From contig JADGNX010000001.1 in the NCBI GenBank assembly GCA_017883265.1, positions 812 to 64,811 of the forward strand: a stretch of DNA of 64,000 nucleotides, given 5' to 3'. The notes below the pieces were generated by a model, which made no database searches, was not told where the DNA came from, and saw only the letters and a list, made by a program, of their open reading frames with translations. The stretch's first letter is position 1, and every line of letters begins with the position of its first letter. Positions 2,907 through 60,395 of this stretch are shown one piece after another. Position numbers and translations under genes: made by a program. Origin of the DNA: Thermoanaerobaculia bacterium (GTDB lineage Bacteria; Acidobacteriota; Thermoanaerobaculia; Gp7-AA8).

Positions 2907-4115
2907 ATGCTCGTCGATCCTCTCCTCGAATTTCGAAGCCACTTTCCGATCCTCGCCCAGACCACCTATCTCGTTTCGCACTCTCTCGGTGCCATGCCGG
3001 CGGCCACCCGTGAGGCACTGGCTGAATATGCCGAACTGTGGGCCACGCGCGGCGTCCGGGCCTGGGGCGACCGGTGGTGGCTCATGTCCATTGAGATCGG
3101 CGACCTCATCGCTCCCTTGATCGGTGCGCCGAGGGGATCCGTGGTCATGCTTCCGAACGTGACGACGGCTGAAGCGGTCGTGTTGTCGTCTTTCGACTTC
3201 TCAGGACCCCGAAACCGCGTGGTCATCGTCGATGGAGAGTTTCCTTCGGTCCGCTACATCTACGATGGTCTGGCCCGCCGCCTCGGAGCCGACATCGTCA
3301 CGATTCCTCACGACGCGACCGGACTCGGATTCGATCTCGATCGCCTTCTCAAAGCGATCGACGAGCGCACACAGATCGTCCCGATCGCACACGTCCTGTT
3401 CGAATCCTCGTTCATGATCGATGTCGAACCGATCGCGCGTCGCTGCCGGGAGGTCGGCGCCACGCTGGTTCTCGATGTCTTCCAATCGGCCGGAATCGCT
3501 CCGGTGGAGGTAAAGCGGTGGGACGTTCCCATCGCGGTCGGAGGCGTGCTGAAGTGGCTTTGCGGCGGCCCGGGAGGGTCGTTCCTCTACGTCGACCCTG
3601 AGCTCCGTCCGAGGCTGGAGCCGAGCTTCACCGGCTGGATGGCGCATGCGAACCCGTTCGGCTTCGAGCCGCCGCCAATGCGGTTTCGAGACGATGCCTT
3701 GCGCTTTGCCCTCGGCACCCCTTCGGTACCGTCGCTATACGCAGCGCGCGAGGGGCCGAAGATCATCAGCGAGGCCTGCGGCGGAGAAATGATCCTGATC
3801 CGCAGGAAGTCTCTGCGGCAGACAGAGAAGCTCATCGCCATGGCAGATCAGCGCGGGTTCGAGGTGCGCACTCCTCGCGATACTTTGCAACGTGGCGGGT
3901 CCGTTTCGATCCTCATTCCTCACGCCAAAGAGGTCGCCGCAGAGCTCAATGCCGAGGACATCGTCTGCGACTTCCGCCCAGGCGCCGGGGTCCGGTTTTC
4001 GCCCCACTTCTACACCACGGATGAAGATCTGGACCGTGCCTTTGCCGCGGTGGACGATATCCTGCGCAGCGAGCGCTGGCATCGGCAGGACTCCAGGCAA
4101 AACATCGTGACCTGA
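2907..4115 (+). CDS. Kynureninase-like PLP-dependent enzyme (aminotransferase class V fold)
   Basis: 402 aa. N-terminal LEFRSHFP...YLVSHSLGAMP, plus KWLCGGPGGSFLYV and FTGWMAHANPFGF blocks resembling kynureninase family signatures. A GGAGG-free 20 nt gap separates it from the upstream gene. Confidence 0.55.
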   Translation: MLVDPLLEFRSHFPILAQTTYLVSHSLGAMPAATREALAEYAELWATRGVRAWGDRWWLMSIEIGDLIAPLIGAPRGSVVMLPNVTTAEAVVLSSFDFSGPRNRVVIVDGEFPSVRYIYDGLARRLGADIVTIPHDATGLGFDLDRLLKAIDERTQIVPIAHVLFESSFMIDVEPIARRCREVGATLVLDVFQSAGIAPVEVKRWDVPIAVGGVLKWLCGGPGGSFLYVDPELRPRLEPSFTGWMAHANPFGFEPPPMRFRDDALRFALGTPSVPSLYAAREGPKIISEACGGEMILIRRKSLRQTEKLIAMADQRGFEVRTPRDTLQRGGSVSILIPHAKEVAAELNAEDIVCDFRPGAGVRFSPHFYTTDEDLDRAFAAVDDILRSERWHRQDSRQNIVT

Positions 4116-11667: not shown

Positions 11668-11817
11668 GCGGAGGTTCTAATGCAAGAGCGTTCTCAGAGC
11701 AATCCTTAGAGCTGGGCATGACCCTGTTCGTCTCTGGGAATGAAGACTGCAAATGCGTCGCGAGGACGGCACGCTCCGTGCAGTCGCTATCGCCAGTCTT
11801 TCCCGCTGAGCTCGTAG

Positions 11818-14881: not shown

Positions 14882-15036
14882 AAATCTAACCGCCAGCCGG
14901 GAAAGCCCGCTGGGTGATGGCGAGCCCGATCGGTGGGCGGTCTGGTTCGGCCATCAGCAAGAGTTGAGAATCGAACAGCGGACAAGGCACGGCGATCCGT
15001 GGCATGTCGTGTGCAAATTTTGGCTCAGGAGAAGTG

Positions 15037-41243: not shown

Positions 41244-41909
41244 ATGCAACGCTGGCTGGAGGACTATGCTGCGGTGGCGTTTTCCCGCGCCGGCGACACG
41301 GCGCACGACCTGAAGACGCCGCTGAACATCGCCGTGCTCAATCTCGAGCTGCTTCGGATGCGGCTTCGGAAGCTTTCCGACGGCCCACCGGACGAGCGGC
41401 TGGAGCAGTACGCGCGGTCCATTGAGATCGAGCTGCGGCGCATGGCGGACATTTTCGACGCCTACTTCATCTTTTCCACTCCGCCAAAGGGGGAGGGGGA
41501 CCCGCAACTCATCGACCTGGTGGCCCTTTGTGACGATGCGGCGACCACAACAGTGACCGCTCTCGATGCCGTTGCAGGCCCAGCCACGACGGTCGCACAC
41601 GAGGGGAGAATTCGCCAGGCCTTCAGGCTGTTTTTCGCAGGAGTACAAAAGGTCCTAAAGTCAGGTTTCCTCTCGTCGACGGCTGTGCGCGATGGTCAAT
41701 TCGTGGTTCGGGCCCGGGGCACTCCAGCGACCGAGGACTTTGAAATCTCCAAGATCTTCAAGTTCTATTACACTGACGCGCTCGGAAATCCGGAACTGTC
41801 GCTGGCTACCGCGCGTCTCATCGCCGAGACGTACGGCGGTCGGCTGTCAGCCAGGCTGGATGAGCAGCAAGCGGTCCTCGAGCTCTCGTTGCCGCTGGGA
41901 GAAGAATGA
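41244..41909 (+). CDS. Minimal cytoplasmic histidine kinase-like protein (DHp H-box plus a short, divergent catalytic region; no sensor/TM)
   Basis: H-box AHDLKTPLN. The C-terminus has a G-box-like TYGGRL but lacks clear N/G1 boxes. The stop overlaps the response-regulator start. Confidence 0.5.
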   Translation: MQRWLEDYAAVAFSRAGDTAHDLKTPLNIAVLNLELLRMRLRKLSDGPPDERLEQYARSIEIELRRMADIFDAYFIFSTPPKGEGDPQLIDLVALCDDAATTTVTALDAVAGPATTVAHEGRIRQAFRLFFAGVQKVLKSGFLSSTAVRDGQFVVRARGTPATEDFEISKIFKFYYTDALGNPELSLATARLIAETYGGRLSARLDEQQAVLELSLPLGEE

Positions 41910-43279
41910 ACAGAGTCCTGATCGTTGATGATGATCGCGCCACGAGCGCTGGTATGGCCGACGTAATCGAGGAATGGGGATACGAGGCGGAAGTGGCGGA
42001 TACCTTGAAGGCCGGCTGGAACTCTGTGTCCAAACTGGTACCCGACATCGCCATCGTCGATCTCAAGCTTCCGGACGGGTCGGGCCTCGATCTTCTCCAT
42101 CGCATCAAGGAGACTTATCCCGACGTATCGGTGGTCATCCTGACCGGTCACGCCACGGTTGACTCCGCGGTCAAGGCACTCAAGGTCGGTGCTGAGGATT
42201 ATGTAACCAAGCCTGTCGATCTTCCGCGCCTGCAGGTCATCCTCAAGACCGTCGAAGACAAGCAGGAGATGAAAAAAGAGATTCTCGAGCTGCGCCGCCA
42301 GCTCCAGAAGATGGGAGCACTCGGGCATCTGGTCGGAAAGTCACCAGCCATGCAGCGTCTCTTCGAAGAGATCGAGATGGTGGCGAATACCGACGCCAAT
42401 GTCTTCATCGTCGGCGAGTCCGGCTCGGGAAAAGAGGTCGTGGCCAACACGATTCACTCGCTCTCACGGCGGCGCAATAAGCCGTTCATCGCCTTCAACT
42501 GTGGCGCGATATCCCCCACCCTCATCGAATCGGAGATCTTCGGCCACGAGAAAGGGGCCTTCACGAACGCCATCAAACGCCGCGAAGGCTACTTCGAGCT
42601 GGCCAAAGGGGGGACGGTATTTCTCGATGAGATTACCGAGATGCCGATCGAGCTGCAGGTCAAGCTCCTTCGAGTGCTGGAAGAGTCGAAGTTCCGCCGG
42701 GTTGGCGGCAATGAAGAGATCAACATCGACGCACGCATCATCGCGGCATCGAACCGCGATCCGGCGAAGGCCATTGCGGACGGGAAGCTGCGGGAAGATC
42801 TCTACTATCGGTTGAACGTCTTTCCCATCGACGTGCCCCCGTTGCGCGAGCGCCTCGAGGACATTCCACTTTTCTCCTATTTCTTCCTCGAGAAGCTGAA
42901 CGAGACCGAGGAAAAGAAGGTGGAGAAGATCGATCCGGAGTTCGTCGAGGCGCTGCAGCAATACGAGTGGCCCGGCAATGTTCGCGAATTGCGCAATGTC
43001 ATCAACCGCTCGTTCATCATGGCCAGGACCAGCAGTCTCACCGTAGAGTGCCTTCCCGATAAGTTCCTCGGCGCGCGCCGGCGACGCAACCGCACCAGCA
43101 TCAACGTGCCCCTCGGATCGCCCATGGAAGAGATCGAGAAGATCGTGATCGAGGAGACGCTGGTGATGACCGACGGGGATCGGCGCAAGACCGCGGACAT
43201 CCTCGGAATCTCCTACAAGACGCTTTACAACAAGACGAAGAAGTACAAGCAGGGCGGAGACGAGGAAGACGACGAGTAA
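41906..43279 (+). CDS. Sigma-54-dependent two-component response regulator (NtrC family: REC + AAA+ + Fis-type HTH)
   Basis: 457 aa with receiver Asp region IVDLKLPDGSG, Walker A GESGSGKE, GAFTNA, the ESKFRRVGG arginine finger region and C-terminal HTH TADILGISYKTLYNK. Confidence 0.85.
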   Translation: MNRVLIVDDDRATSAGMADVIEEWGYEAEVADTLKAGWNSVSKLVPDIAIVDLKLPDGSGLDLLHRIKETYPDVSVVILTGHATVDSAVKALKVGAEDYVTKPVDLPRLQVILKTVEDKQEMKKEILELRRQLQKMGALGHLVGKSPAMQRLFEEIEMVANTDANVFIVGESGSGKEVVANTIHSLSRRRNKPFIAFNCGAISPTLIESEIFGHEKGAFTNAIKRREGYFELAKGGTVFLDEITEMPIELQVKLLRVLEESKFRRVGGNEEINIDARIIAASNRDPAKAIADGKLREDLYYRLNVFPIDVPPLRERLEDIPLFSYFFLEKLNETEEKKVEKIDPEFVEALQQYEWPGNVRELRNVINRSFIMARTSSLTVECLPDKFLGARRRRNRTSINVPLGSPMEEIEKIVIEETLVMTDGDRRKTADILGISYKTLYNKTKKYKQGGDEEDDE

Positions 43280-53804: not shown

Positions 53805-53826
53805 GGCGCATTCATCGCGTTTCAAC

Positions 53827-53854
53827 AAAAGGGCGGTCGAGAGACCGCCCTTTT
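53827..53854. terminator. Bidirectional rho-independent terminator between two convergent genes
   Basis: AAAA-GGGCGGTC-GAGA-GACCGCCC-TTTT: a perfect 8-bp GC stem with a 4-nt loop, flanked by an A-tract and a T-tract. It sits 23 nt after the secreted-protein gene stop and 11 nt after the SOD gene stop. Confidence 0.75.
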
Positions 53855-53864
53855 GACTTGCAGG

Positions 53865-54566
53865 CTACCGTGACGTGGCCAGTGAAGACTGTCTCTTGAG
53901 CCGCGCGTCGATGACATTCCAGTCCACATGGGCCAGAAAGGCCTCGATGTATTTCGGGCGATCGGCTGGTTTGTAGTCCAGCAGATAAGCGTGCTCCCAT
54001 ACGTCCATGATGAGAATCGGAGCGAAACCGGCGACGTTGCCTGTTTCATGGAGAGTGATCCAGTGATTCAACAGGCGGCCTGTGGTTGGATCCTCCGAGC
54101 AGACGGCCCAGCCGACCCCCCGCATCTTTCCGATTCCGACGAAGTCGGCTCGCCAGATGTCGAGGCTGCCGAAGCTTTCTTCCGCCGCGCGTTTGAATGA
54201 TGAATCGCGCGCCGGCACCCCTCCCGCCTTCTTCGTCATGTTACCGAAGTAGTATTCGTGCAGGACCATGCCGTTGTACTCGAATCCGAGACGTCGGGTG
54301 AGCTCCGAATACGCGGGCATTTCCTCCTGATCGACCTTTCCGTCTGCGAGAATCGCGGAGATCTTCTCGGTCAGCTCGTTCGTCGCCTTGACATAACCTT
54401 CATAAAGCTTGAAATGCATCTCCAGAGTCTTGTCCGAGATGCCCGTCAGACCGCTGAGATCAAAAGCCTTCGGCTTGTAAACCTTGGAATTTGCCATCGT
54501 CGATGCCATTGTCGTTACCATGTCAAACACCTTCCTTTCATCCCATATCAGATGCATTTCCCGCAC
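53865..54566 (-). CDS. sodA: Fe/Mn-family superoxide dismutase
   Basis: C-terminal DVWEHAYLLDYKPADRPKYIEAF, with N-terminal ligand His and Tyr spacing (MHFKLYEGYV). The true start is probably an internal Met (around 54497-54509). The track coordinates are kept. Confidence 0.8.
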   Translation of the reverse strand: MREMHLIWDERKVFDMVTTMASTMANSKVYKPKAFDLSGLTGISDKTLEMHFKLYEGYVKATNELTEKISAILADGKVDQEEMPAYSELTRRLGFEYNGMVLHEYYFGNMTKKAGGVPARDSSFKRAAEESFGSLDIWRADFVGIGKMRGVGWAVCSEDPTTGRLLNHWITLHETGNVAGFAPILIMDVWEHAYLLDYKPADRPKYIEAFLAHVDWNVIDARLKRQSSLATSR

Positions 54567-54616: not shown

Positions 54617-55951
54617 TCAGTCCCGAACACAGCGGAACGTCGCGTAGAGGTATGGATATATCGGTCGAAACCAATTTCGAAAACTGCGCCGGACGAGAAG
54701 GTCATCCGTGACGGGCGATGCTCCCTTCAATACGAAGTGCTGCCCATCAAAAAAATCAGTCGAGTAGACCGGATAAGAAGCCATCGGCGAGAAGCCCTCG
54801 AAGGGGGCAAACGGCGTCGACGTCCACTCCCAACCGTTGCCTACGAGATCCTCGACGCCCCATGCGCTGGCCCCGGCAGGAAACGAGCCGACCGCGACAG
54901 GATCAGCGGCGCGGAAGCCGAAATTGCCATGATGAGCGGCTGGGGCCTCGTCGCCCCACGGATGGAGCCGTTCAGCCCCCTGCGGCGTGCCGAAGGCCGC
55001 TCGATGGTATTCGGCCTCGGTGGGAACCCTCATGCCGGCCCAGCGCGCGTAAGCGGAAGCTTCGGCATGCGTGACATATACCGGACCATGCGGAGGGAGC
55101 GGATAAGCCTCGAACAGACCTCGCCACATCCAGCTCTCTCCTGAACGCGTCCAGAAGTGCGGATGACTCACTCCCTCTTTCTCGATCCACCGCCGGGCCT
55201 CGGCGGTCCAGAGAGACCGATCCGTGTAGCCTCCCGCCCCGACAAAGTCGAGATACTCATTGTTTGTCACATTGAATTTCTGAATGCTGAACGGAGAAAC
55301 GTGCTGCACGTTCGTCGGAAACTCGTTGTCCCAGAAGAAGTCGTCGGTCGTGTAGTCGGTGCCGAGCGTTGCCGTACCGCCCGGAATATCGATCAATTCC
55401 TGCACGACGACGCGGTCGGTCGACGTATGGCGTTGGGGGCTGTTCGGCCGCTTCCTGCCATACGACAGCTCGTGCAGGATGTAGTGCAGCGTCTCCTGAT
55501 GCATGAACTCGTGCTCGATCACCGCCAATGCCGCCTGCCCGCGACGCAGCATCGGGTTGTCATCGTTCTCGAGCTCGGATTCGAGGAGCGTTTTCTCGAT
55601 GATCTCGTCCGCCGCCCGGCCGTATGCGAGCACTTCCGACCGGGAGGGCCAGCCAGAGGCCTTTCCCTTTGCCGCCGCCTGTTCATCCTCGGGATCAATG
55701 CCTCTGGCGAAAAGAACTTCCAGCCGCTCATCGATCCCCGGCCGGCCGAGCGCTCCCTTGATCAGCGTGTTGATGATGAACGCCGGAAGGTGCCCCTCGT
55801 AAAAGACAAATGGATGGCGGAGTGGAATCGGCCGTTCGTAGTACGCGTCTTCGCTCGGGATGGCAAAAATGGAGTGAGTGCGGCGACGAGCGGATCGATA
55901 ACGTCCGACAAGCGCACTACGGTCGGACAGGGAGCTGGCGTAGGTCTTCAC
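54617..55951 (-). CDS. EgtB-like enzyme: N-terminal DinB_2 domain fused to a C-terminal FGE-sulfatase (formylglycine-generating-enzyme-like) domain
   Basis: 444 aa. Its length and two-domain layout match EgtB-type sulfoxide synthases. It has the DinB-type His-rich region (IEHEFMHQETLHYILHE), and GNGWEWT and RSFRNW blocks in the FGE half. Confidence 0.6.
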   Translation of the reverse strand: MKTYASSLSDRSALVGRYRSARRRTHSIFAIPSEDAYYERPIPLRHPFVFYEGHLPAFIINTLIKGALGRPGIDERLEVLFARGIDPEDEQAAAKGKASGWPSRSEVLAYGRAADEIIEKTLLESELENDDNPMLRRGQAALAVIEHEFMHQETLHYILHELSYGRKRPNSPQRHTSTDRVVVQELIDIPGGTATLGTDYTTDDFFWDNEFPTNVQHVSPFSIQKFNVTNNEYLDFVGAGGYTDRSLWTAEARRWIEKEGVSHPHFWTRSGESWMWRGLFEAYPLPPHGPVYVTHAEASAYARWAGMRVPTEAEYHRAAFGTPQGAERLHPWGDEAPAAHHGNFGFRAADPVAVGSFPAGASAWGVEDLVGNGWEWTSTPFAPFEGFSPMASYPVYSTDFFDGQHFVLKGASPVTDDLLVRRSFRNWFRPIYPYLYATFRCVRD

Positions 55952-55991: not shown

Positions 55992-56750
55992 TCAACCGGT
56001 GCGCGCCGGCACCTCCGCGGGCACTTCGAATAGCCGGAACGCCGGCTTGTCGGGATAGAGGCGCGCCAGGAGGGGCATGGCCACGTTGAACACCGGGATG
56101 TTGCTCCTGGTCCGCCCTTCTGGCGCCCCGTGGTGCGCGTGGCCGTGGAATACTGCGTTGACGCGGTACCGCTCGAGCGGCTCTTCCAGACGGCTGGAGC
56201 CGAGGAAGGCGATCATTTCGGGAGGCTCGCCGACTACGGTGGCCTGAATCGGTGCGTAGTGAAGGACGGCGATTTTCTGCGGGGTGCGGAGCCGTGCCAG
56301 AGCCGCCTCGAGTTTCAGGCTCTCCTCCACGGCCTCGTGCACGAAGTCCTTGATGAGCTTTTCTCCCCAGGCGCCGAGGGCACGCCGGCCGAACCCACCG
56401 GCGAAACCTTTAACCCCCGCAAAACCGACGCCGTGCAACTCGTGCGAATCTCCGTCCAGCATGATCACGCCGGCCCCGGCCAGAATCTTCGTTACCTCGT
56501 CCTGCTGGCCCGACTCGAAATCATGGTTTCCGAGCACGGCGATGACCGGTACGCGGACCGAGGTCGTCAAATCCTTCGCCAGGATCTTTGCCTCTTCCAC
56601 CGTGCCATAGTCGGTGAGGTCACCACAGAGGAGGAGGACGTCCGCGTCCTCATTCGCGCTCGCGAAGAGTGGCTGTAGTGACCCGGCTGAATTCTTCTTG
56701 ATGTGAATATCGCCAACAGCAGCGATACGCAGCGTTGCTCGAGTGGCCAT
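55992..56750 (-). CDS. Calcineurin-like metallophosphoesterase
   Basis: 252 aa with GDIH, GDLTDYG, GNHD and GHAHH motifs in canonical order. Confidence 0.75.
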   Translation of the reverse strand: MATRATLRIAAVGDIHIKKNSAGSLQPLFASANEDADVLLLCGDLTDYGTVEEAKILAKDLTTSVRVPVIAVLGNHDFESGQQDEVTKILAGAGVIMLDGDSHELHGVGFAGVKGFAGGFGRRALGAWGEKLIKDFVHEAVEESLKLEAALARLRTPQKIAVLHYAPIQATVVGEPPEMIAFLGSSRLEEPLERYRVNAVFHGHAHHGAPEGRTRSNIPVFNVAMPLLARLYPDKPAFRLFEVPAEVPARTG

Positions 56751-56753
56751 GAA

Positions 56754-57557
56754 TCATTTGTCCTTGTCGATCGCTGCAGTCCAGTGCGCGATCTCCGCAG
56801 AGGTCATGTTTCCTCGCGGCTGCAGACGAGCGTCCTCGTAACCCCACAGGCCGATGTCGGTAAGATACTGCTGGCGCGAGATAATCGGACCGAAACAGAC
56901 TCGTTCGCTGCCTTCCGGCGCAGCCGTTTCCTGCTGCAGCCTCCCGGTCAACTCCTGGACTACCCACCTTGGAACTTTGGATCGATGGGAGGGATAGATA
57001 AACCCGAAGAGGATGATGTGTGCAAACAGAGGTCTCCACAGATGGCCGAAACGGTCGAGGAGCCGGCGCCAGTCCATCTGATCGCCGCGAGCGTGGATGA
57101 CGTGCGCGACATCCGCGCCATCGTAGCGCTCGCGCTCCATGATCAGGCCCTTCGACCAGATCATCTCCTCGGCCGGAATGAGACGGACCGGCAGGTCGAG
57201 CACGGTGCCTTCCGTCGACTTCTCAAACCAGATATTGTCAACGCGCGCCACGCCGTTTCCAGCACTGAAGATGAGGTCGATGAAGTCCTCGCCGTGATAC
57301 GCCTTGCCCAGCCAGTGGGGAAAGGTAAGGTCCGTTTGATAGCCGGCGTCCTGCAGCGTCCGGGAGATCCGCGGATAGTCCTCGCGTTTGACAAAGATGT
57401 CGAAGTCCTTGGTGTGACGCTCGATGCCGGTGTATCTGGCAAAGGCGTACGCTCCGCCGACCAGGTAAGGCAGCTTCTGCTCGTTCATGATCGACAGCGC
57501 GCGCCGATAAAATGTCCGGCTCTTTTCGTCGATCCCCTGGTCCATCGCGGTAGGCAT
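56754..57557 (-). CDS. Pol-beta-superfamily nucleotidyltransferase-domain protein
   Basis: ATG 57557 is preceded by GAGGAAGAG. The LVGGAYAFARYTGIERHTKDFDIFV segment matches the hG[GS]x9-13DhD NTase signature. The ~180-aa C-terminal domain has unknown function. Confidence 0.5.
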   Translation of the reverse strand: MPTAMDQGIDEKSRTFYRRALSIMNEQKLPYLVGGAYAFARYTGIERHTKDFDIFVKREDYPRISRTLQDAGYQTDLTFPHWLGKAYHGEDFIDLIFSAGNGVARVDNIWFEKSTEGTVLDLPVRLIPAEEMIWSKGLIMERERYDGADVAHVIHARGDQMDWRRLLDRFGHLWRPLFAHIILFGFIYPSHRSKVPRWVVQELTGRLQQETAAPEGSERVCFGPIISRQQYLTDIGLWGYEDARLQPRGNMTSAEIAHWTAAIDKDK

Positions 57558-57625
57558 TGGATTCTCTTCCTCAACCCGAGGTCGTTCCGGATAAGTGCAC
57601 CTTCCGGACCACTTGCGAGGAGTGG

Positions 57626-58450
57626 TCAGGCTTCCTTGATTCCCTCGGCCCACGACATCGCAAACCAGAAGGCCGCGTCATCCCGACTCGACCACGCAAT
57701 GAGGTTTCGTAGAACGACATCGTAGTAATCGGCGTCGAACAGCTTGTGAAGGACCACGGTCTCCCTTGCCCCGTCCAGGATGCCGTGAAGGTTTTCCACG
57801 AGATCGGCAAAGTTGTCGCTACCGGCGCAGCCTCCGAAAAAAATCCAGTCATTGCGTCGGGCCCTTGCTCCTGCTTCGACCAGCAAGGAGGTCAGGCGTC
57901 GCCCGATGAATGGATCATTTCCGATGCGCTCATAGGACCGCATGTACGCTCTCCAGAGATCGGCCAGCCCCGGCGGCTCGGGCCACAAACGCAGAACGTC
58001 GTGGTCGTCGTCGGCCAGGATGATCCGGCCACCGGGCTTCACGGCTCCCACCATGGCCTGCACCACAGACAGAGGGTCAGAAAGATGTTCGAGGAGAAAA
58101 CGGGCGTGCGCGACATCGAACGACCCATCCTCCGCGTCGGTGAGGGGAGGATCGGCTGCGTCGCCGTGGCGGAAAAGGACCAGAGATTCTTCGTTGTCGG
58201 CACGAGCCAGCTCGATGGCCCTCGCGAGCTGCTCCTCACTCCGTTCGATGCCGACCACGCGACCGGGGGCGGCCTCGCGCGCCATCTCACGGGTGAACTG
58301 ACCGAGGCCACAGCCGAAATCGACGACGCTGTCTCCGGGCTGGAGGCTCAAACGGGCGCGCGAGGCGGGGTTCAGAATCCGGTTCATCACTCCGAGGCGG
58401 CGCTGTTCCACCGGAGATGTGCCATGAATGTAAGTCGATGGAGACTGCAT
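57626..58450 (-). CDS. Class I SAM-dependent methyltransferase
   Basis: ATG 58450 gives MQSPSTYIHG. Motif I VVDFGCGLG and post-I acidic residue. The start ATG overlaps the upstream stop as TGATG. Confidence 0.7.
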   Translation of the reverse strand: MQSPSTYIHGTSPVEQRRLGVMNRILNPASRARLSLQPGDSVVDFGCGLGQFTREMAREAAPGRVVGIERSEEQLARAIELARADNEESLVLFRHGDAADPPLTDAEDGSFDVAHARFLLEHLSDPLSVVQAMVGAVKPGGRIILADDDHDVLRLWPEPPGLADLWRAYMRSYERIGNDPFIGRRLTSLLVEAGARARRNDWIFFGGCAGSDNFADLVENLHGILDGARETVVLHKLFDADYYDVVLRNLIAWSSRDDAAFWFAMSWAEGIKEA

Positions 58451-59391
58451 CACTCCGCCTCGACTGCCTTCACAGAATAACCGGCGTCGGCCCAGCCCTC
58501 CAGCCCTCCTGCGAGGGGGCGAACCAGCGTGAATCCCTGATCGATCAGCATGCGAGCCACACGGGCCGCTGAGGCTTCGTTTGGTCACGTGCAGTACAGG
58601 ATGATCTCCTGGGATGGCTTCATCCCCGCCATGCGCTCGTTGATCTCAGAGAGGCTCATGACCATGGCTCCGGGGATCATTCGTGGATCGCTCTTCCGCG
58701 CCGAGCGCGTCCTGACGTCGAGAACCACGACCGCCTCGCCAGCGTCCATCATTCGCTTGAGCTCTGCCGGCTGGATGCGGGCCATACGCAGGTGGCGATA
58801 GAACCGGATTCGCTGCCACCACTTCAGGAAAATGAAGAGCGCAAGCAGCGAGACAGCCACCACGCCGCCCCAGACGCCCAGATTCTGCAGATGCCGCAAC
58901 ACTTCGTGAAGCGCGTGCCGGAAGATGAAGCCGACGGCGATCCCGCTACCGGCCCAGAGAAGCGCTCCAGCCGCATCGTAGGCCATGAAGAGGAGTGCCG
59001 ATGCCCCGATGGCTCCGGCCAGAGGAGGTCCGACGGTCGAATATCCGGGGATGAACTTCGCCGCGATCAGCGAGGGAAGTCCCCAGCGCTCGAAAAAAGT
59101 CTCGGTTTCGCGAACGCAGGAATCGGGGGAAAGAGAAATCCTGCAGAGCGTGCGCAGGATCCTCCAGCCGTAGCGACGGCCGAGGAGAAACCAGACGATA
59201 TCAGCGATCAGAGAGGCGAGCACCGCAGCCATCAGGATCGATGAAGTCGAGAGGCGGCCTTCGCGAATGAGCGAGCCGGCGACGAGCAGAACGGGAAGTG
59301 CCGGAATCGGCGCTCCTAGCTGCTCCAGAAGGACGTTCAGAAACACGAGCGGTGTGCCATGGCGCACGACGAGGGTGACCAGCTGCTCCAT
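58450..59391 (-). CDS. DedA(VTT)-family membrane domain fused to a C-terminal rhodanese domain, with an in-frame TGA (candidate selenocysteine) at the rhodanese catalytic-Cys position
   Basis: The track ORF 58585..59391 ends ...EIILYCT-TGA(58587..58585). The same frame continues PNEASAARVARMLIDQGFTLVRPLAGGLEGWADAGYSVKAVEAE to TGA 58452..58450, which overlaps the methyltransferase ATG. The extension is the canonical rhodanese C-terminus (GG..W). Ungapped alignment to GlpE puts the TGA on the catalytic Cys. Confidence 0.55.
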
Positions 59392-59435: not shown

Positions 59436-60395
59436 TTACCAGACCTCGTCAATCCGGATCGCAGAGCTCCGGGTGGTGAGCCGGATGACCGGGCTGGCTT
59501 TCCCGATCCGCAGATGGCGAGGTGGATGGTCTGGCGGCAGCTCCATGCAACGGGCCAGATGGCACTCGATCTGCCCGCCCGCGGCAGACTCAGCTTCGAT
59601 GCGCCCGCTGAAATCATCTCGTACATGCAGGCGAACATCCCCACTCTCGCTCCGAGCGTCGAGCAGACGGCCCCATTTCTGGCCCGGCAGGCTGATGGCG
59701 ATGTCGCCGGTGACGGTCGCGGCCGAGACGTCCCCGGTGGTCGACTCGATGGCGATGCCGCCACTCTCGCTGCGGGCGTCGAGCGAGCCGCCGGCATGAT
59801 CGATGGTAATGCCGCCGCCCACGGAATGAACGTGCTGCTCGCCGACGCAGGAGGCCAGGGAGATCTGGCCGTTCGTGGTTTGTGCCTCGATGCGGCCATT
59901 CATGTTACGGACGGCGATGCCGCCGTTTGCAGCCGCCAGCTCGAGGGCAATACCACGCGGAACCTCGAGAATCATATGGACCCACCAGGCCCGCTCGGAA
60001 GTGAGGGCAGGCCCGCTCGACCTGATCCGGCCGTCGAGGGCGCTGGTCACCGAAACCGATCCCAGGACATTCCGCGCCTCCAGAATGGTGGCGGCCGCCG
60101 CAAACTTACAGACCGTCAGGCGCGCGTCCGAGCGACTCCATCCCCGAATGGAGATGCCGCCCGCCTCGCTGGCGGTTACCGAGAGCCTGCCCAATGACGA
60201 GATGGGAAGGAGCCGATGCTCTTCGCCATGGACTTCCGCTCCCAGGGTCGTGAAGCTCGTCGTGTGAAAGTGCTCGCACGATTCGACGTCGCTATGCTCC
60301 TGTGTCGTGGCGATGAAGGAGCGCGTCGTTGGTCGCGCCGCAACCGCGGTGATCAGCAGTACAGGAATCAGAGCTGCCGCAATGCGCATGACCAT
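59436..60395 (-). CDS. Secreted DUF4097-like (putative adhesin / beta-helix repeat) protein
   Basis: Signal peptide MVMRIAAALIPVLLITAVAA, then repeated G-x-I-x-(V/I)-x-x-x-x-G(D/S)(I/V) turns such as GGIAIESTTGDV and GDIAISLPG. Confidence 0.5.
   Translation of the reverse strand: MVMRIAAALIPVLLITAVAARPTTRSFIATTQEHSDVESCEHFHTTSFTTLGAEVHGEEHRLLPISSLGRLSVTASEAGGISIRGWSRSDARLTVCKFAAAATILEARNVLGSVSVTSALDGRIRSSGPALTSERAWWVHMILEVPRGIALELAAANGGIAVRNMNGRIEAQTTNGQISLASCVGEQHVHSVGGGITIDHAGGSLDARSESGGIAIESTTGDVSAATVTGDIAISLPGQKWGRLLDARSESGDVRLHVRDDFSGRIEAESAAGGQIECHLARCMELPPDHPPRHLRIGKASPVIRLTTRSSAIRIDEVW

Follow-up and report, generated by a model that had tools for sequence, protein, structure and literature searches.

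A predicted EgtB-IV-like sulfoxide synthase gene of Acidobacteriota in a conserved four-gene unit with a predicted sigma-54 promoter

Type IV ergothioneine sulfoxide synthase (EgtB-IV) is a cyanobacterial enzyme (Liao and Seebeck 2017, as cited in 10.1101/2024.04.10.588772; PDB 8VIG and 8VIH). Kayrouz et al. (bioRxiv 10.1101/2024.04.10.588772) sorted the active-site classes of this enzyme family with a composite motif of 17 positions, which reads RxYH--DxHxHYxNWFx in EgtB-IV, xSDH--RRHQHYYNWDR in EgtB-I and xNEH--HRHxHYYN(F/Y)(F/Y)R in SenA. For the related OvoA_Th2, structural work assigned H71, H162 and H166 as metal ligands, Y406 as the catalytic tyrosine and R62 and Y68 as ligands of L-cysteine (PMC10696552). 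The role of ergothioneine in bacteria and the regulation of its synthesis are still poorly understood. Here we describe an EgtB-IV-like gene and its surroundings in a 64,000-nt stretch of DNA from a Thermoanaerobaculia bacterium (assembly GCA_017883265.1, contig JADGNX010000001.1, positions 812 to 64,811), referred to as the window and numbered from its first nucleotide. The gene, predicted to encode a non-haem iron sulfoxide synthase of 444 aa with a DinB_2 and an FGE-sulfatase domain, occupies positions 54617-55951 on the minus strand and begins with a GTG codon.

By sequence, the active site of the EgtB-like protein fits the EgtB-IV type. Residues were mapped on a HMMER alignment to OvoA_Th2, with roles taken from the structure paper. 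This mapping, suggested as a check by the initial annotation of the locus, located a three-histidine iron site at H54, H147 and H151 (equivalent to H71, H162 and H166) and the catalytic tyrosine at Y393 (Y406), and all four residues are invariant in the alignment of relatives that we call A1. R45 and Y51 correspond to the L-cysteine ligands R62 and Y68, and D86, counted with these ligands, is the conserved aspartate of the OvoA-like motif, which in OvoA_Th2 follows backbone V102. Y396, N426, W427 and F428 would form the hercynine-type substrate pocket, at positions that read F..Y-A-F in OvoA. The composite motif is thus R.YH--D.H.HYYNWF. and agrees with EgtB-IV at every informative position, which suggests free L-cysteine as the donor and hercynine as the acceptor rather than gamma-glutamylcysteine, a selenosugar or histidine. 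The initial annotation had left the nucleophile open, and this question now appears largely answered, since the L-cysteine ligands R45, Y51 and D86 are present and the gamma-glutamylcysteine positions of EgtB-I are not: the R,R...D,R of that class reads D86/D89...F428/Y432 here. Two further classes were considered and rejected. The OvoA type is contradicted by the lack of a fused S-adenosylmethionine (SAM) methyltransferase, the lack of the histidine-type pocket F(Y/F)AF and a score below the 400-bit cut-off of TIGR04344. Likeness to SenA, which had also been proposed, did not hold up: the selenosugar motif xNEH--HRH of the SenA/OvsA type is absent, the SenA model gives 227 bits against a cut-off of 420, and no senB or senC is present in the window.

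The two-domain, EgtB-like architecture recognised in the initial annotation is confirmed by Pfam. The FGE-sulfatase domain spans residues 184-443 (E 8e-43), and the DinB_2 domain spans residues 18-154 with a score of 24.2 bits (E 5e-5), 0.6 bit short of the cut-off of 24.8. Neither a C-terminal methyltransferase nor any other third domain was found in the protein by the Pfam scan. The open reading frame (ORF) is real, and its G+C content of 0.71 at third against 0.49 at second codon positions, in a window of 61% G+C, fits a coding frame. Profile-HMM discrimination, likewise proposed at the outset, placed the N-terminal OvoA model (ovoA_Nterm, TIGR04344) at the top of the NCBIfam scores with 263 bits, closely followed by egtB (TIGR03440; 249 bits, cut-off 360) and SenA (NF041186), each under its cut-off. 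The two EgtB-IV structures (8VIH, E 7e-61; 8VIG, E 2e-60) head the full-length matches to solved proteins, ranked above OvoA (8KHQ, 3e-50), OvsA (5e-40), SenA (1e-27) and the EgtB-II of Chloracidobacterium (6O6L, 1e-24). EgtB of M. thermoresistibile (4X8B) ranked next after EgtB-IV and aligned only to the C-terminal residues 143-441. Identity to OvoA is 31%. Taken together, the profile and alignment scores place the protein in the OvoA-like half of the family, with EgtB-IV and ovoA_Nterm as its best matches. The earlier statement that the protein resembles EgtB far better than OvoA is therefore correct for the domain architecture but not for the sequence.

Homologues in the protein database number in the thousands, and the 120 best listed share 55-95% identity with the EgtB-like protein. 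Genomic contexts were collected in a scan of one genome per species, which gave 80 loci at 53-58% identity, nearly all in Acidobacteriota metagenome-assembled genomes labelled Vicinamibacterales or Thermoanaerobaculia, and in a second scan of metagenomes with the neighbouring nucleotidyltransferase as seed, which gave 80 further loci. Loci L001, L002 and L083-L085 were added by look-up of individual homologues. Typing of these contexts by tblastn, using the window's neighbour genes and an EgtD as queries, revealed two mutually exclusive arrangements among the Acidobacteriota relatives compared (53-62% identity). At 66 loci (type A) egtD, encoding a Methyltransf_33 protein, directly follows the EgtB-like gene. 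At 48 loci including the window (type B) the order is NTP_transf_5 nucleotidyltransferase, metallophosphoesterase, EgtB-like protein and Fe/Mn superoxide dismutase (SOD). None of the 48 type B loci has egtD within 10 kb, and a total of about 700 kb from these loci gave no egtD by tblastn. The orphan status of the gene, first noted in this one genome, is thus not an accident of a single assembly but is shared by the 48 loci with this arrangement. The SOD gene is present in 30 of the 32 type B loci with at least 1.5 kb of downstream sequence. At L083-L085 overlaps of 1-4 nt join the nucleotidyltransferase, phosphoesterase and EgtB-like genes. Comparison of 66 type A with 12 type B sequences (the window among the 12) showed one and the same active-site motif, with tyrosine at the F428 position in two of the 12; the sole systematic difference between the types is at positions 31/32, far from the known ligands.

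The four genes of the window lie on the minus strand. The nucleotidyltransferase (267 aa, 56754-57557, ATG at 57557) belongs to the Pol-beta superfamily and carries a GG...DFD motif, the calcineurin-like metallophosphoesterase (252 aa, 55992-56750) starts 3 nt past the nucleotidyltransferase stop, the EgtB-like gene follows after 40 nt, and the SOD gene (218 aa, 53865-54521, ATG at 54521) is the last of the unit. An intrinsic terminator lies just past sod (53822-53855, minus strand), where a 13-bp G+C-rich stem is followed by UUUUGUUG. The fold computation gives this hairpin, which a U-run follows, -24 kcal/mol (z-score -5.4), although a pattern scan for terminators did not list it. At the other end, 68 nt separate the nucleotidyltransferase from an upstream methyltransferase gene, and this gap holds a sigma-54-type -24/-12 promoter element, TGGTCCGGAAGGTGCA (57596-57611, minus strand), 39 nt upstream of the nucleotidyltransferase ATG. 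Alignment of the type B sequences upstream of the nucleotidyltransferase start shows a conserved CGGCA(Y)G-N4-GTGCA with GG-N10-GC spacing. This spacing is the pattern of sigma-54 -24/-12 promoters, whose consensus is TGGCAC-N5-TTGCA; in the window the -24 box is the weaker TGGTCC. A strict version of the pattern occurs at 36 of the 48 type B loci, 22-59 nt upstream of the predicted nucleotidyltransferase start, and a loose version at 45 of 48 within 160 nt, compared to background rates per 160 nt of 0.002 and 0.015, respectively. Upstream of type A egtB the strict pattern was found at 0/65 and the loose pattern at 2/65 loci.

The conserved promoter ahead of the nucleotidyltransferase places the EgtB-like gene in a discrete four-gene unit, predicted from its upstream sequence to be sigma-54-dependent, and leaves the methyltransferase gene and a selenoprotein rhodanese gene outside and upstream of it. 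The proposal that the EgtB-like gene shares an operon with the selenoprotein is therefore doubtful, all the more as just 16 of the 34 type B loci that extend far enough upstream have the rhodanese gene. A gene for a Sigma54_activat response regulator is present at 41906-43279 (Pfam scan of the window), and no enhancer-binding protein consistently linked to the type B operon was found. The sigma-70 promoter scan gave no match and the Rfam scan only tRNA-Asn. Further strict sigma-54 pattern matches occur on the plus strand at 11767-11782 (CGGCACGCTCCGTGCA) and at 15000-15015 (TGGCATGTCGTGTGCA), the latter at the start of a 115-aa ORF without a Pfam match. Long arrays of short tandem repeats in inverted copies, such as GTGGTTA.../...TAACCAC and GATCTCT..., were also seen at L028, L072, L097, L108, L122 and L128, where they closely precede the sigma-54 promoter and lie 60-200 nt ahead of the nucleotidyltransferase start. 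They might bind an activator, act as terminators or be repetitive extragenic palindromic-like elements.

The SOD aligns to the Aquifex Fe-SOD 1COJ (E 2e-33), and its four metal ligands are all conserved (the histidines of EMHF and VLHEYYF, and the aspartate and histidine of DVWEHAY); its NCBIfam scores are under the cut-offs. The nucleotidyltransferase has the GG...D-x-D signature of the Pol-beta superfamily, and its AlphaFold2 model (predicted local distance difference test score 81) shows by Foldseek a loose likeness to ANT(2'')-Ia, LnuA, MenT1 and generic Pol-beta nucleotidyltransferases (TM-scores 0.4-0.47). PDB sequence searches with the nucleotidyltransferase and the phosphoesterase were empty or insignificant and gave no solved sequence relative of the phosphoesterase, and PADLOC returned one weak PDC-S10 match. 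A nucleotidyltransferase and a phosphoesterase under sigma-54 control recall the sigma-54-controlled RNA-repair operons.

The rhodanese gene upstream of the unit (58450-59391, minus strand) encodes a fusion of a DedA (VTT) membrane domain with a rhodanese domain. Its frame runs on for 44 codons past a UGA at the catalytic position (58585-58587, motif LYCT-U-PNEAS). All 25 homologous genes of the collected loci have TGA at this position, in the motif LYCT-U-PNEA(S/T)AARVAR, and none has a cysteine codon. Judged from this conserved in-frame codon the DedA-rhodanese is a true selenoprotein, in agreement with the initial annotation. Nine nucleotides past the UGA begins a SECIS-like (selenocysteine insertion sequence-like) hairpin (58542-58579, minus strand) with its inner stem at +19 and an apical loop CGUGU. 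The hairpin is conserved and has one covarying pair (CG 10, GU 3, GC 1, broken 1), most other pairs being invariant in a region that is also protein-coding. The best NCBIfam match of the rhodanese domain, with U replaced by C, is NF041203 at 81.9 bits, under the cut-off of 115. No tRNA-Sec was found in the window. The methyltransferase gene (57626-58450, minus strand, 274 aa) encodes a class I SAM enzyme that is not EgtD-type, and its ATG shares 1 nt with the rhodanese stop. It is present in 12 of the 34 loci and always directly follows the rhodanese gene, and the coupled pair may serve in sulfur or selenium handling and methylation. A different O-methyltransferase gene follows sod at four loci from three related lineages.

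Further upstream, a gene for a DUF4097 (Toastrack/LiaG-like) protein (59436-60395, minus strand) is a frequent neighbour. At L028, L065, L072, L077, L083, L092, L094, L108 and L117 an extracytoplasmic function (ECF) sigma factor, a zinc-finger anti-sigma factor and a HEAT-repeat protein are encoded upstream of the DUF4097 and rhodanese genes, mostly divergently. This trio is missing from the window, which has moaA and a signal peptidase gene on that side instead.

Type IV ergothioneine sulfoxide synthesis, from L-cysteine and hercynine supplied by an unlinked EgtD, is to our judgement the most likely function of the EgtB-like protein, and we hold it with moderate confidence. The protein would be a mononuclear non-haem Fe(II), O2-dependent sulfoxide synthase with its iron on H54, H147 and H151, and would join the sulfur of free L-cysteine to C2 of the imidazole ring of hercynine (N-alpha-trimethylhistidine). 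Its product, hercynyl-cysteine sulfoxide, would be converted to ergothioneine by a pyridoxal phosphate-dependent C-S lyase, and an egtD gene at another site in the genome would account for the hercynine. Transcription of the four-gene unit would start at the sigma-54 promoter and end at the intrinsic terminator. Probably the four genes form an antioxidant or damage-response operon that is inducible and depends on an enhancer-binding protein.

The canonical partner genes egtD, egtC and egtE are absent locally, as the initial annotation had stated and as tblastn and Pfam scans of the window confirm. With EgtD of L002 as the query, tblastn found no homologue in the 64 kb (best E 0.23), and Pfam detected no Methyltransf_33, EgtC-type amidohydrolase, EgtE, SelD, SelA or SelB among the roughly 49 largest ORFs. 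Two candidates for the missing enzymes were rejected. The only class-V aminotransferase (2907-4115), considered as EgtE, is kynureninase-like and scores 45.9 bits against the EgtE cut-off of 400, and the methyltransferase upstream of the unit, considered as a substitute for EgtD, is not an obligatory partner given its presence in just 12 of 34 loci and its tie to the rhodanese gene. At L109, L115, L118, L119, L133, L061 and L065, inspection by eye suggested recurring genes for a GCS2-type carboxylate-amine ligase, an ATP-grasp enzyme and an esterase 6-9 kb downstream of the EgtB-like gene; these are not in the window. The GCS2-type ligases are the family of the gamma-glutamylcysteine ligase EgtA.

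Several observations weigh against type IV ergothioneine sulfoxide synthesis. An unlinked EgtD has to be assumed, as egtD is missing from the window and from within 10 kb at the 47 other type B loci, and no candidate C-S lyase linked to the EgtB-like gene was found. The protein falls under the NCBIfam cut-offs for OvoA, EgtB and SenA alike and shares just 32-33% identity with characterised EgtB-IV. A bootstrapped neighbour-joining tree (16 taxa, 200 bootstraps, OvsA as outgroup; a distance method with reference sequences transcribed from alignments) united cyanobacterial EgtB-IV with OvoA at 100% and placed the Acidobacteriota clade (90%) as their sister, so that the hercynine-type motif of this clade, as read from its sequences, could be ancestral or convergent. 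Tentatively, the tree hints at a deep lineage of its own for this clade, with a hercynine-type pocket. Within the clade, a large neighbour-joining tree grouped the type B sequences at the base, but the bootstrapped 16-taxon tree backed neither type as monophyletic (12% and 5%). Finally, the tight coupling to the nucleotidyltransferase and phosphoesterase genes could reflect a shared, different pathway. As to the assumed EgtD, a complete chromosome (L018) carries a type-A-like EgtB gene with no egtD adjoining, which shows that unlinking of egtB and egtD does happen.

The four-gene unit might instead encode a pathway of its own, in which the EgtB-like protein, nucleotidyltransferase and phosphoesterase work together, by way of a nucleotidylated intermediate for instance, and use a betaine or imidazole other than the hercynine made by EgtD, or imported hercynine, to give an undescribed thiohistidine-type metabolite. 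The three genes co-occur strictly and are translationally coupled in 47 of 48 loci, egtD is never nearby in type B, and the predicted nucleotidyltransferase fold is nearest to the small-molecule O-nucleotidyltransferases ANT(2'')-Ia and LnuA. These fold matches are weak, however, and include tRNA-modifying toxins, and no active-site position separates the type B EgtBs from those linked to egtD. Moreover, the nucleotidyltransferase-phosphoesterase pair also occurs without EgtB or SOD and in other orientations at 47 loci, nine of which have 3.5 kb or more of sequence to either side, which indicates that the pair is a self-contained module in its own right. At these stand-alone loci (among L124-L165, for example L143, L147, L153 and L155) the phosphoesterase gene is mostly upstream or divergent, no sigma-54 motif was found and no conserved neighbours of the pair were seen. 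Conversely, L003 has lost the nucleotidyltransferase, phosphoesterase and SOD genes and retains the EgtB-like gene. We consider a pathway of this kind unlikely. Equally little weight is given to the broader notion that genomes with the operon lack any EgtD and that the unit makes or acts on a thiohistidine-type compound by an undescribed route, aided in about half of the lineages by the membrane-anchored, selenocysteine-containing rhodanese and the SAM methyltransferase; such a route might draw on another methyl donor system, on a betaine taken up from outside or on a nucleotidylated intermediate. By eye, some stand-alone pairs were seen to adjoin a LigD primase-polymerase-like gene.

If hercynine were lacking, the enzyme might act mainly as a thiol dioxygenase that converts cysteine and O2 to cysteine sulfinate as part of a redox response. 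Precedent comes from OvoA enzymes, which act as cysteine dioxygenases if their histidine-type substrate is absent or modified (PMC10696552; PMC8943887), and the absence of a linked egtD and the co-transcription with sod would suit such a role. The hercynine pocket Y396/N426/W427/F428 and the catalytic tyrosine are nevertheless kept across 12 loci at 55-60% identity (two with tyrosine at F428), a degree of conservation unexpected if the hercynine site were unused, and the catalytic tyrosine itself favours sulfoxide synthesis over dioxygenation. We therefore regard a primary dioxygenase function as improbable. Formation of a C-Se bond in the manner of SenA or OvsA, or use of a persulfide or perselenide from the neighbouring rhodanese, is very improbable: a true selenoprotein rhodanese is indeed encoded 2.6 kb upstream on the same strand, directly adjoins the EgtB-like gene in L003 and stays clustered with it in L083, where sod and the rhodanese-methyltransferase pair have switched to the other strand, and the close relative L001 encodes SelB some 8.5 kb away from EgtB, but the selenosugar-binding positions are replaced by the cysteine-binding R/Y/D, no senB or senC (SelD-like) gene was found in the window, and 18 of 34 loci lack the rhodanese gene, which moreover sits upstream of the promoter that heads the EgtB unit.

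Outside this neighbourhood the window includes the chromosomal origin region (13000-34000), with genes for RNase E/G, gyrA, gyrB, recF, dnaN, dnaA, rnpA, yidC, jag, mnmE, mnmG, parA and parB, and an F-type ATP synthase operon at 35-41 kb. Between 47253 and 50942, 4-7 kb from the four-gene operon, a malate/lactate dehydrogenase gene has on its two sides genes for an ATP-dependent DNA ligase (684 aa) and a PolB-exonuclease-like protein.

The kind of enzyme described here is already known; what is new is the conserved type B operon and its predicted regulation. Overall, a large uncharacterised lineage of Acidobacteriota sulfoxide synthases gains a clear prediction, namely type-IV-like use of hercynine and L-cysteine, and its type B branch would tie ergothioneine-type chemistry to SOD and a sigma-54 inducible stress response in abundant soil bacteria.

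Compared with described systems, the upstream DedA-rhodanese resembles the rhodanese-related (seleno)protein NF041203 ('LYCAU') in having a selenocysteine codon at the catalytic cysteine (LYC-x-U) but differs in its N-terminal DedA/VTT fusion and its LYCTU motif. With the selenoxide synthases SenA and OvsA the EgtB-like protein shares the fold and a similar size, and it lacks their selenosugar-binding N-E...H-R positions and senB/senC neighbours. EgtB-I and EgtB-II (4X8B, 6O6L, TIGR03440) have in common with it the reaction type, the hercynine-binding N-W and, at the type A sister loci, the egtB-egtD pairing, whereas their N-terminal parts align poorly and it has neither the RR..DR positions of type I nor the YY insertion of type II. 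OvoA (5-histidylcysteine sulfoxide synthase; 8KHQ, TIGR04344) belongs to the same half of the family and has the same iron ligands, catalytic tyrosine and L-cysteine ligands, but carries a fused C-terminal methyltransferase and a pocket F-(Y/F)-A-F in place of the unfused Y-N-W-F form found here. EgtB-IV differs in sequence (32-33% identity), perhaps in phylogenetic position, as the Acidobacteriota clade lies outside it and is sister to OvoA plus EgtB-IV in the 16-taxon tree, and in context, the window gene having no egtD neighbour and lying in a predicted sigma-54 unit with nucleotidyltransferase, phosphoesterase and SOD genes. It nonetheless shares with the EgtB-like protein a two-domain form of about 440-470 aa without a methyltransferase, full-length alignment at E values near 1e-60, the composite motif RxYH--DxHxHYxNWFx, the predicted substrates hercynine and free L-cysteine and, through the type A sister loci, a pairing with egtD.

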